From positions 7,088 through 71,087 of the forward strand of contig JAZDKE010000008.1 of the NCBI GenBank assembly GCA_043803245.1: a DNA stretch of 64,000 bases, read 5' to 3'. The position numbers and the translations under genes were made by a program. Source of the stretch: Chloroflexota bacterium. Lineage in GTDB: Bacteria; Chloroflexota; Dehalococcoidia; Dehalococcoidales; SURF-40. The notes below the pieces were generated by a model, which saw nothing but the letters and a program-made list of their open reading frames with translations, ran no database searches and had not been told where the DNA came from. Positions 8,472 to 63,699 of the stretch are shown piece by piece. Numbering within the stretch: the first letter of the stretch is position 1; each line of letters begins with the position of its first letter.

Positions 8472-9158
8472 TTACCTCTGCTGGAGCCGGTTCAGCAAGA
8501 TATTGACCGCAAGCCCCAGGAAAATCAGTATCATGCCCAGGGCGAGCGATAGCTCAAGGTCGCCTCTTGAGGTCTCGAGCGAGATGGCGGTGGTGATGGT
8601 CCGGGTAAATCCCCGGATATTGCCGCCCACCATCAGGGAAATGCCAAGCTCGGAGAAAGTGCGGCCAAAGGCCATAATAATCACCGCCAGGATGGCAAAC
8701 CTCGCCTCCCGGAGAACGAGCCAGGTCATCTGAAAGCGCCCGGCGCCAAGCGAGACGGCGGTCTCGGACACCGCTTTATCAATCCCGCTGAGCGCCGATA
8801 TGGTGAGACCGGTGACTACCGGCGCTACCAGGACCACCTGTCCGAGGATGATTGCCGCCGGGGTAAACATCAGCCCCAGACCGCCCAGGGGCCCGGCCCG
8901 GGAAATTAACACGAAGACGAAGAGGCCGACCGCGACCGTGGGCAGGCTGTAAAGGGTCTGGACGATATTGACGAGGAACCTCTTACCCGGGAAGCGGTTG
9001 AAATGGATGGCGCTGCCCAGGGGTATGAAGAGTAAAATAGCGATAACGCAGGAGGCCGCCGCCAGTGACAGCGACCTCCCGGCGATCTCCATCACCTCCG
9101 GGTCCAGCGATGTTATCAACTGGACTGCTTTAAGCAGTGCTTGCCAGAGTTCCGTCAA
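8472..9158 (-). CDS. tupB: tungstate/molybdate ABC transporter permease
   Basis: 228 aa with about 5 TM helices. It sits between the binding-protein and ATPase genes. Confidence 0.75.
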   Translation of the reverse strand: MTELWQALLKAVQLITSLDPEVMEIAGRSLSLAAASCVIAILLFIPLGSAIHFNRFPGKRFLVNIVQTLYSLPTVAVGLFVFVLISRAGPLGGLGLMFTPAAIILGQVVLVAPVVTGLTISALSGIDKAVSETAVSLGAGRFQMTWLVLREARFAILAVIIMAFGRTFSELGISLMVGGNIRGFTRTITTAISLETSRGDLELSLALGMILIFLGLAVNILLNRLQQR

Positions 9159-61641: not shown

Positions 61642-61670
61642 TTGGCCTTAGACCGGTAGTTAGCTATAAT
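61642..61670 (+). promoter_or_regulatory. sigma70-like promoter positioned for a leaderless methyltransferase mRNA
   Basis: TTGGCC (61642..61647)-N17-TATAAT (61665..61670). The ATG at 61678 is only 7 nt after the -10, and there is no usable SD. Confidence 0.5.
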
Positions 61671-61677
61671 AGGGGTA

Positions 61678-62508
61678 ATGAACCCGAAAAAGAAGCCGAC
61701 TCAGAGCATAAACGACCTCGACTTAAGCCGCTGGAAGGAATACGGCGATATCATCACCGACAGCCTCTGGCTTTTTCCCAAGCGGGACGATAGTGGCGTG
61801 CACTCACCTGAATACTGGGGGAACTTCATCCCCCAGATCGTGACCCAGGCGGTACTGCGGTTTACCAAAAAGGGCGAGACGGTGCTCGACGGCTTCCTGG
61901 GGCTGGGCACCACTCTCATCGAGTGCCGGCGTCTGGGCCGTAACGGCGTCGGCGTGGAACTGGTGCCCTGGGTGGCCAGCCGGGCTAACTGGTTTGTTAA
62001 CCTCGAGCCTAACGATGCGGGGGTGACGGCGCGGGTTATCGAGGGTGACAGCCGGCTTGCCGAAACCGGGGACAAAGTCCGCCTGGCCTTAAAGGAGTGC
62101 GGCACGGAGCAGGCCCATCTCCTGGTGCTCCACCCTCCCTACCACGACATTATCCGTTTCAGTGACCTCGAAGGCGACCTGTCGGGAGCGGCTTCCGAGG
62201 CGGATTTCTACGACATGTTCGAGCGGGTGGTGGCTAACTATAGCCCGTTTCTGGCACCGGACCGCTACCTGGTGCTGGTCATCGGCGATAAATATGCCGG
62301 CGGCGAGTGGCTGCCCCTGGGATTCCGGAGCATGGAGCGGGTCTATAAGTACGGCTATACTCTGAAAAGCATTTGCGTGAAAGACATCCAGGAAAACCGG
62401 GGTAAAAGGAATAAACTTAGTTTGTGGCGTTATCGGGCCTTAAAAGGCGGCTATTATATCTTCAAACACGAGTATATTATATTTTTCAAGAAGGATGGAA
62501 GAATATAA
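61678..62508 (+). CDS. SAM-dependent N6-adenine/N4-cytosine-type methyltransferase (motif I before motif IV)
   Basis: 276 aa. Motif I is VLDGFLGLGTTLIECRRLGRNGVGVEL. Motif IV-like is LLVLHPPYHDI, about 75 aa later. The last ~100 nt are AT-rich, like the downstream genes. Confidence 0.7.
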   Translation: MNPKKKPTQSINDLDLSRWKEYGDIITDSLWLFPKRDDSGVHSPEYWGNFIPQIVTQAVLRFTKKGETVLDGFLGLGTTLIECRRLGRNGVGVELVPWVASRANWFVNLEPNDAGVTARVIEGDSRLAETGDKVRLALKECGTEQAHLLVLHPPYHDIIRFSDLEGDLSGAASEADFYDMFERVVANYSPFLAPDRYLVLVIGDKYAGGEWLPLGFRSMERVYKYGYTLKSICVKDIQENRGKRNKLSLWRYRALKGGYYIFKHEYIIFFKKDGRI

Positions 62509-62550
62509 TAAGCACACTGACAAATCCCTTTTTATAGTTAGGAGGGTATT

Positions 62551-63634
62551 ATGCAAACCACTCACGTTTTCATAGTTGATACTATAACTTTTAAATATCA
62601 CCTGGAGTATAAGTTTGCAGGTACGGGTGCAACTCCTCCAAAAGGTAAGCCGGAATATTACATTGACTTCAATGCTTCGCCTTACTCAACCCTCGCTAGT
62701 GCCACTGAGAATAACCTAGTCAGAATGATGTCGGATTCGCAAAGGGTAAGAGTGGGTGATTACGTAATATTTTATTTACAACAAAGTAAATCTACCGGAA
62801 TCCGAGAAGGGAAATTCTACGGGATATTCAAGGTTAAGCAAGCTCCTTCATTTCTGGATAACCGTGACTCAAGCCAATTCCTTAAGTCCCAACTTAATAA
62901 ATCTCTGACTTACAGAACTTCGATTGAACCGTATGAGGTTTATGCTAAAGGTATAACTGAATGGGAAGCATTAGATGAGATAAAATGCGTGCCGTCACCG
63001 TGTCAAATGCTCTGGAGTTTAATCTACAGGAAGTTAAAAGCCAACAGGGGCAACACAATGATTACCGTTTATGAAAGTGAACGCCTTTTCAAACTTCTTA
63101 GAGATAAGAATGATCGCCAAACATTAGAAGGCGTAAACTTCACCTTTGATGTGCCAAGTCAGGAAATTCATCTTTCGACAACTCCCCAAGTTTATTCAGG
63201 TAGACAAGAACAAATAGATATACTGCCGAGGTTGATAGAAAAGCTTACAGAAGGCAAGGTTATTGGAATGGCTTGGCAATGAAGTGTCTTGCGGGGTCGG
63301 GATGCAAAGAATAGACATTCTCTTAGATACTATGCAAGATATAACAAAAATAATCATCCCGATAGAATTAAAAGCTACTCAAGCTAATCCTGATAATACA
63401 TTTCAATTACAGAGGTACGTTGATTGGCTTGAGCAGTACTACATACCCAGTAGGACTGGAGATATACAACCTGCTTTAGTTGCTTTACCTTCGAGCAGAA
63501 CGTCTCATAATTACATTCAGCTCATAAATGCGTTCCACAGATTTAATACGGGTAACCCTCGATGTTTACCTCTCAAATATATTGAATATATCGAATATCA
63601 AAATGGTTTAGCCTTCCAAGTTGTCCAATACTAA
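62551..63634 (+). pseudogene. frame-split nuclease: N-terminal PUA/EVE-like domain plus C-terminal PD-(D/E)xK (NucS/RecB-like) domain
   Basis: ORF 62551..63282 (VRVGDYVIFY...GKFYGIFKVK) and ORF 63263..63634 (GMQRIDILL...IIIPIELK...QLQRYVDWL) overlap with a +1 offset. Joined, they read ...LIEKLTEGKV/LEWLGNEVSCG... GC is far lower here than in the flanks. SD AGGAGG precedes ATG 62551. Confidence 0.55.
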
Positions 63635-63699
63635 CTAATTAATCACCGTAGCAGGAGGCAAACAGGTGGCCAAAACTCCAGGCGAAGTATTTAAAAACC

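Follow-up and report, generated by a model that had tools for sequence, protein, structure and literature searches.

A 64,000-nt stretch of DNA from a Chloroflexota bacterium of the order Dehalococcoidales (SURF-40; assembly GCA_043803245.1, contig JAZDKE010000008.1, positions 7,088 to 71,087 of the forward strand), hereafter the window, likely contains a Type II restriction-modification (R-M) operon whose restriction half has died. The operon would comprise a promoter, an intact methylase gene, M1, and a nuclease gene, R, whose product would have been blocked by methylation, probably at CATG. Specifically, M1 would methylate an exocyclic amino group within a short palindrome, with the adenine of CATG as the likeliest target, and R would cut sites without that methyl group. 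Cutting would rely on a RecB/NucS-type PD-(D/E)xK centre made up of a helix E, a D, an ExK and a QxxxY, and DNA recognition on an EVE/YTH-like N-terminal domain together with a highly conserved middle domain. In the window, an 89-nt deletion has inactivated R while M1 was kept, so that the locus appears to be heading towards the solitary-methylase state of related genomes. Asymmetric decay of this kind, with R broken, M1 intact and relatives that have M1 alone, is typical of a toxic nuclease paired with a protective methylase.

The methylase gene

M1 (61678-62508, + strand) is an intact open reading frame (ORF) of 276 aa, predicted to encode a permuted N6_N4-type DNA amino-methyltransferase. 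It scores 56.7 bits against Pfam N6_N4_Mtase (PF01555; cut-off 26.7, E 4e-15), and the PADLOC Type II methylase model MTase_II matches it at 6e-104. The initial annotation had described a methyltransferase with motif I ahead of an unusual HPPY motif, and both points stand. Motif I, DGFLGLGTT, is encoded at 61888-61914 (+), ahead of motif IV, HPPY, which the ORF translation places at 62131-62142 (+); the S-adenosylmethionine (SAM) motif I and the catalytic motif IV expected of a Type II methyltransferase are both present. The closest solved structure is that of the beta-class enzyme TTHA0409 (2zie), relative to which the two matched segments occur in swapped order. M1 therefore appears to be a circular permutation, with motif I preceding motif IV. 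DpnA is one of its weak matches among solved structures.

HPPY is invariant in 26 of 26 aligned M1 homologues, down to 56% identity, and a Campylobacter jejuni homologue that is 40% identical has LHPPY. A literature search for an HPPY methylase motif returned nothing relevant; an invariant HPPY would be an undescribed variant of the catalytic motif of N6-adenine methylases. The family itself has been published before, without a name of its own, within the C. jejuni “IceA1/NlaIII gene cluster” (PMC4202330), a precedent that the initial annotation, which recognised neither protein as a named enzyme, had missed.

A promoter-like site, TTGGCC-17 nt-TATAAT, lies at 61642-61670 (+; 10/12 matches). 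Its −10 hexamer, TATAAT, ends 7 nt ahead of the M1 ATG, so the M1 transcript may be leaderless; the same spacing is found (positions 160-178) in L001, a locus from a Dehalococcoidia metagenome-assembled genome (MAG). The pair had initially been given a start at 61642, which is where the −35 hexamer of this site begins rather than any coding sequence. Compared with solitary homologues, M1 has a ratio of non-synonymous to synonymous substitution rates (dN/dS) of 0.11-0.14. This ratio suggests that solitary M1-type methylases are under purifying selection, and M1 in the window is probably an active solitary enzyme.

The nuclease gene is broken

R is present as two overlapping ORFs. The 5′ fragment (62551-63282, + frame 1, 243 codons), which has an AGGAGG upstream, codes for the EVE/YTH-like domain (about residues 1-135) as well as the middle domain, and includes the sequences VRVGDYVIFY and GKFYGIFKVK; its final seven codons (63262-63282) are out-of-frame read-through ending at a TGA. 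The 3′ fragment (63263-63634, + frame 2, 123 aa) encodes the RecB/NucS-type PD-(D/E)xK core, with the D of RIDIL (within RIDILL) at 63314-63316, the E and K of IELK (within IPIELK) at 63365-63373, and QLQRY (within QLQRYVDWL) at 63404-63418, all on the + strand.

The closest intact homologue of R, with 75% protein identity, is that of L001, and it served as the reference for the lesion. Relative to L001, 89 nt are gone at a junction between 63261 and 63262 (+). Alignment to intact homologues likewise leaves the window copy short by ~29 residues precisely at the frame change. The ~29 deleted residues, AFEAHLQTYIVQNIGRNTNTDLDACLLDTL, form the helix with which the nuclease core begins. Its E, H and Q (FExHLQ) are invariant in 42 close homologues; in a diverged set, down to 30% identity, the E is nearly invariant, and the three residues as a group are nearly invariant or in the majority. 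Since 89 nt that include the first catalytic helix are lost and the frame is shifted, R in the window is best read as a pseudogene formed by deletion plus frameshift. A simple or programmed frameshift was rejected because 89 nt are missing rather than the one or two of a slip. A Type II system would have an adjacent nuclease with an intact catalytic centre; the window copy is a decayed member of its family and has none.

Could the two ORFs still yield a working enzyme, by programmed frameshifting or as two subunits, or could the break be an assembly error? Both fragments have long open frames, their dN/dS relative to L001 is low (0.07 and 0.14), and the sequence with the deletion is carried by one contig only (P0009). 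The loss, however, is of ~29 residues that include the conserved E/H/Q/N/G of all the ~385-aa homologues, and the low dN/dS would mostly reflect a long shared history before inactivation; it is consistent with a recent event. We regard a functional R in the window as barely credible.

A reader-like fold joined to a NucS-like core

The domains of R are supported at the level of the fold and not as members of Pfam families. An intact homologue, P0001, was modelled with AlphaFold (pLDDT 77, pTM 0.79), and the best match of the full-length model is the EVE protein PH1033 (E 2.7e-5, probability 1.0), followed by MspJI, PaqCI, AspBHI and EndoMS. The window's own 243-aa fragment gave a more confident model (pLDDT 90, pTM 0.89), whose N-terminal domain matches PH1033 with an E of 7e-7, a probability of 1.0 and a TM score of 0.71. 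Further matches of this domain are MJECL36, a Leishmania EVE protein, human THYN1 with DNA containing 5-methylcytosine (5mC), and then many YTH readers of N6-methyladenine (m6A). The models thus support an EVE/YTH-type pseudobarrel of the PUA superfamily at the N-terminus, as had been proposed from the sequence pattern in the initial annotation (PUA-fold, EVE/ASCH-like). Scores against Pfam EVE (PF01878) stay below the cut-off of 23 bits (19.9 bits, E 8e-4, for the window fragment; 14.5 bits for P0001), PRK00809 matches the 5′ fragment at E 4e-6, and the N-terminal domain has no Trp that is invariant across the diverged family.

The C-terminus appears to be of the RecB/NucS flavour of PD-(D/E)xK, again in agreement with what was first noted. 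Even the diverged family keeps the E of FExHLQ, the D of RIDIL, the ExK of IELK and the QxxxY of QLQRY. This E...D...ExK...QxxxY core is shared with NucS/EndoMS (DUF91), which is the best sequence match of the R C-terminus; the likeness is limited to the core motif region, where only ~50 residues align. R is without the NucS N-terminal domain, found in an R-M rather than a repair context, and outside the NucS/EndoMS family proper (PF01939, NF003270): the 3′ fragment matches NucS at a sub-threshold E of 1e-4, the scanned R proteins score 13.2-18.4 bits against NucS_C (cut-off 24), and NF003270 gives 21.5 bits vs 216.

The two domains are separated by a segment of exceptional conservation, QMLWSLIYRKLKGNRGNTMIT (WSLIYRKLK..RGNTMIT), which is a candidate sequence-recognition element. 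Pfam and NCBIfam scans of intact R nucleases found only the sub-threshold EVE and NucS matches, and a PADLOC scan of them found none. A sequence search of solved structures returned nothing with a single R protein and only NucS, at E 0.17, with an R profile; a search of a viral structure library gave no significant match.

An obligate partnership with methylases

Searching with the joined window fragments as the query uncovered an R family of more than 2,300 clusters (90% identity), found in bacterial phyla, candidate-phyla radiation (CPR) lineages and some archaea. Nearly all of its full-length members are 384-391 aa long, and intact homologues appear at NCBI under the name “DUF91 domain-containing protein” or “endonuclease NucS.” Among 185,579 species genomes (one per GTDB species), relatives of R occur in 163 loci. 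The best 80 of these are the basis for the counts of R neighbourhoods given here.

An M1 homologue adjoins R in 76 of the 80 loci, nearly always directly upstream on the same strand. In three more, a methylase of the D12 class, M2, abuts R alone, on the downstream side, and the one left over ends at a contig edge. Hence, M1 and/or M2 abuts R in 79/80 loci, which is the linkage expected of a Type II system, and no locus among the best 80 has an R lacking a methylase (that one contig edge aside). M1 and R are usually separated by a few bases or overlap, and the two diverge together: where the methylases are ~59% identical to that of the window, the nucleases are 38-41% identical to the family profile. 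Linkage between methylase and nuclease is obligate. The R family is probably a Type II R-M family, widespread and as yet uncatalogued, with no representative in Pfam, PADLOC or the PDB. Of the two alternatives in the initial annotation, linkage and the IceA-related evidence described below favour a Type II-like R-M system whose DNA-binding domain is uncharacterised; the annotation's view of the pairing as an oddity does not survive, as the pair is a widespread conserved module tied to the IceA/hpyIM (NlaIII-type, CATG) systems.

The linkage could in principle be a by-product of R-M loci acting as insertion hotspots, i.e., a defence-island effect, with R unrelated in function to the methylases. 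Indeed, genes for a GmrSD_N protein and a HEPN protein sit between M1 and the IceA-M2 pair in C. jejuni, and in L021 and L049 other small unassigned ORFs separate M1 from R. A hotspot is nevertheless very unlikely to explain adjacency that is near-universal, tight or overlapping, and that reaches pairs whose nucleases are only 38-41% identical to the profile. Moreover, the sole stand-alone relative of R that was found is weak and distant.

R might also have no role in defence and instead nick or repair DNA under methyl direction, with the methylation state of its partner's site telling the strands apart, as for MutH with Dam; such an enzyme would pair a reader domain with a NucS-like core. The R core is nearest to that of NucS/EndoMS, a mismatch endonuclease, and the methylase lineage has survived as a conserved gene that stands alone and is subject to purifying selection. 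Three observations make a repair function highly improbable. First, R has a patchy, cross-phylum distribution, and the 51-59% identity between phyla (80 best loci) is typical of mobile R-M genes. Second, R and an established restriction enzyme replace one another. Third, R is easily lost from loci that keep the methylase.

The stand-alone relative lies on the Halobaculum limi plasmid NZ_CP120469.1 (L084, 4995-6167) and is 24% identical over 86% of the length; there is no DNA methylase within 5 kb of it. It was the only relative of R in annotated phage and plasmid records, where no phage match was found. A single R locus was detected in 2.9 million viral contigs, so the system is not phage-borne. 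Some loci have additional genes. In L021 (5446-5988) and L049 (3825-4391), an ORF of 180-188 aa with no family match lies between methylase and R, and its copies share 44% identity. L073 (5072-6000), like L058, L066 and L055, has next to the pair an HNH enzyme that starts with a zinc ribbon (PADLOC REase_II PDLC03537, distantly IceA-like); L073 has in addition a controller-type helix-turn-helix (HTH) protein.

A connection to IceA and CATG

What sequence does the system recognise? The CATG enzyme NlaIII has a homologue in Helicobacter pylori, IceA1, and R is repeatedly found with IceA and its methylase. M2 is present in 28 of the 80 R loci, and 11 have a gene of the IceA family (PF05315, E about 1e-111) or one for a related HNH enzyme. 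Gene orders of the larger loci include M1-R-M2, M1-IceA-R-M2 and M1-R-IceA-M2. M1 in turn adjoins IceA in 69 of 80 metagenomic IceA loci, for which M1-IceA-M2 is the usual order. M2 is 68-72% identical to its C. jejuni homologues and is the orthologue of hpyIM, as the C. jejuni D12 methylase gene has been described to be (PMC4202330). The methylome of C. jejuni HS:19 contains Cm6ATG, which has been assigned to the D12 methylase (PMC8743553). The HS:19 cluster also has an M1-type gene, and no additional motif assignable to it was seen.

An allelic swap in Helicobacter provides the most direct link. M2 is abutted by IceA in H. rodentium and by a 376-aa EVE-nuclease, 59% identical to P0001, in H. 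typhlonius. The site is the same in both species: the upstream aldo-keto-reductase gene and promoter are shared, and the M2 proteins are 89% identical. Ahead of the H. typhlonius EVE-nuclease is a 47-codon zinc-ribbon ORF that, judged from its N-terminal sequence, would be a remnant of the zinc-ribbon HNH enzyme type. H. typhlonius DNA is methylated at Cm6ATG (PMC4705304), and R therefore coexists with that mark. We infer that R does the job of IceA, that adenine methylation of CATG blocks rather than activates R, and that M1 would be a second CATG methylase. The target of R is probably CATG.

How do these loci compare with known systems? Like NlaIII/HpyI (iceA1-hpyIM), they bring together R, IceA and hpyIM orthologues in shared operons, with R replacing IceA in Helicobacter and M1 flanking IceA. 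They differ in that the window R is a PD-(D/E)xK protein with an EVE-like domain whereas IceA is an HNH enzyme, and in that the window M1 is a permuted N6_N4 methylase with HPPY rather than a Dam-like D12 methylase; CATG specificity would extend to M1 and R by context. Between the upstream zinc-ribbon gene and the downstream carboxymuconolactone-decarboxylase (CMD)-type gene, the window has neither IceA nor a D12 methylase. M1 is the only gene of the cluster there, and the combination of an IceA nuclease with a D12-class CATG methylase that marks an IceA/hpyIM (NlaIII-type) cluster is absent from the window. A literature search for the sequence family of two other CATG enzymes, FatI and CviAII, gave nothing usable.

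Systems of the DpnII/MboI type have two methylases of one specificity, one of the D12 class and one of the N6_N4 class (DpnM and DpnA). The larger R loci resemble them in having one methylase of each class around the nuclease gene or genes. The differences are that DpnII/MboI-type systems target GATC and have unrelated nucleases; a common specificity of M1 and M2 is suggested by context and by the HS:19 methylome.

Several observations weigh against a methylation-blocked CATG system. First, the slot that R occupies accepts unrelated defence genes, as C. jejuni has the GmrSD_N and HEPN genes there. Second, CATG is only mildly under-represented in the window (observed/expected [O/E] 0.71), and some hosts show no such deficit. 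Third, IceA and R share an operon in ~11 R loci and 19 IceA loci, which looks redundant if both enzymes cut the same site. Fourth, the specificity proposed for M1 derives from gene context and from the lack of an extra motif in HS:19, where M1 might be silent. Fifth, every characterised nuclease with a PUA-superfamily reader is modification-dependent; such nucleases are reported to lie only rarely beside DNA methylases (PMC6765204).

The C. jejuni CATG cluster itself (L091/L092, 2633-4328) has its GmrSD_N (DUF262) and HEPN genes between the HPPY methylase and IceA-hpyIM.

Is R a modification-dependent nuclease?

The modification dependence of known reader nucleases leads to the alternative that R, too, would be such an enzyme, of Type IV or IIM. 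The EVE/YTH-like domain of R would read a modified base, such as m6A or a hypermodified base at sites other than the host motif, and the methylase would mark or protect self DNA in a form that is not read. Known modified-base readers (EVE, THYN1 with 5mC DNA, YTH with m6A) have this class of fold, and R does fuse a reader-type domain to a nuclease, as Type IV and IIM enzymes do. Its overall architecture, an N-terminal PUA pseudobarrel followed by a C-terminal nuclease, resembles that of MspJI and AspBHI (SRA-like plus PD-(D/E)xK) and of VcaM4I and TspA15I (EVE plus HNH). EVE-PD(D/E)XK fusions have been listed as putative Type IV enzymes by Bell et al. (PMC7641849), and having R and IceA in one operon would be sensible if their targets differ.

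Yet the PUA-superfamily modification-dependent nucleases have no cognate methylases and cut modified DNA (PMC6765204, PMC7897488); indeed, the lack of a nearby methylase has been cited in support of their modification dependence (PMC6765204). Such an enzyme needs no cognate methylase, and one abuts R in all but one of the 80 loci, with co-divergence. R also substitutes for IceA before an 89%-identical hpyIM orthologue, and decay is asymmetric, with R lost and M retained. Dependence of R on Cm6ATG is impossible, given that H. typhlonius carries that mark (PMC4705304). On this evidence, a modification-dependent R is unlikely.

Functional implications

What, then, would a reader-like domain do in a classical restriction enzyme? 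A more specific version of the methylation-blocked CATG model gives the domain a role in discrimination, and takes two forms. In the first, the domain would sense that the N6-methyl of the CATG adenine is missing: the adenine would be flipped into the EVE-like pocket, and cutting would be licensed only when it lacks the methyl group. In the second, R would be a two-mode enzyme that cuts unmethylated CATG and whose reader also attacks phage DNA with adenine modifications outside the host motif. A two-mode R would explain why R is kept alongside IceA. Both forms are speculative, and together we consider them a minority prospect, rather unlikely as they stand.

PUA-superfamily domains (SRA, EVE, YTH) in bacterial nucleases are currently taken as a bioinformatic signature of modification-dependent restriction. 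The R family breaks that rule, as it has a reader fold and yet the genetics of a classical methylation-blocked restriction enzyme. If the methylation-blocked model is correct, R would define a structurally new class among Type II enzymes, one that probably cuts CATG by means of a PD-(D/E)xK centre and in which a reader fold is employed to verify the absence of a mark. It would also call for caution in the automatic annotation of reader-nuclease fusions as Type IV.

History of the locus

The initial annotation described the pair as a low-GC insert, which turns out to be correct for the nuclease but, within the methylase gene, only for ~110 nt at the 3′ end; the rest of that gene is host-like. 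GC content is 0.36-0.42 from about 62300 to 63650 vs 0.55-0.65 in the flanks, with 0.389 in the nuclease region and 0.595 in the window as a whole. Within M1, the 5′ part (61678 to about 62330-62400) has a GC content of 0.61 and a third-codon-position GC content (GC3) of 0.78, and the 3′ end (62331-62508) a GC content of 0.39. Acquisition of the whole R-M pair as a low-GC insert was rejected, because the M1 body, at 61% GC, matches resident solitary methylases.

The break in composition is also a break in ancestry. The first ~720 nt of M1 have 82-96% DNA identity to L081, a locus in a related genome; from ~62400, i.e., the last ~110 nt of M1, through R, the nearest relative is L001, with 76-90% identity. 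A recombination or composition breakpoint is thus placed inside M1 at about 62400..62405, with L081-like high-GC DNA upstream and L001-like low-GC DNA downstream. M1 appears to be a mosaic of a host-like, high-GC lineage of solitary methylases and a low-GC cassette. In L081, where M1 is 86% identical, the very next gene is the CMD gene that also lies downstream in the window, and there is no nuclease. In L001, a low-GC, intact M+R cassette lies ahead of that gene. The presence of the same CMD gene after the L001 cassette and after the L081 solitary methylase would mark a shared insertion locus. The simplest reading is that cassette alleles recombined at this locus and that the nuclease was lost later. 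Decay from an R-M system towards a solitary methylase is the usual path.

A further solitary copy of the methylase, with 81% protein identity, is present in L082 and L083, and in L083 the OTCase and Der genes lie a few kb away. In the window, the operon is flanked upstream by an FmdB-type zinc-ribbon gene (PF09723; 61349-61597, − strand) and downstream by the CMD-family gene (63666 onward, + strand), identified by synteny with L001 and L081.

GATC depletion

A separate feature of the window is an extreme scarcity of GATC. There are 11 sites, at 9084, 9351, 11122, 22282, 25712, 27843, 28661, 54645, 57151, 61836 and 63112, vs 259 expected from a second-order Markov model (O/E 0.04). GATC was rejected as the target of the M1-R system because its depletion is a lineage trait not common to all hosts, and because the context of IceA and hpyIM orthologues indicates CATG. 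For example, O/E ranges from 0.0 to 0.9 in other hosts of the R family. In the related Dehalococcoidia loci it is consistently low (L001 0.06, L081 0.13, L082 0.11, L083 0.09, L012 0.13), which suggests that GATC has been under strong pressure throughout the lineage, for reasons that have nothing to do with the M1-R system.

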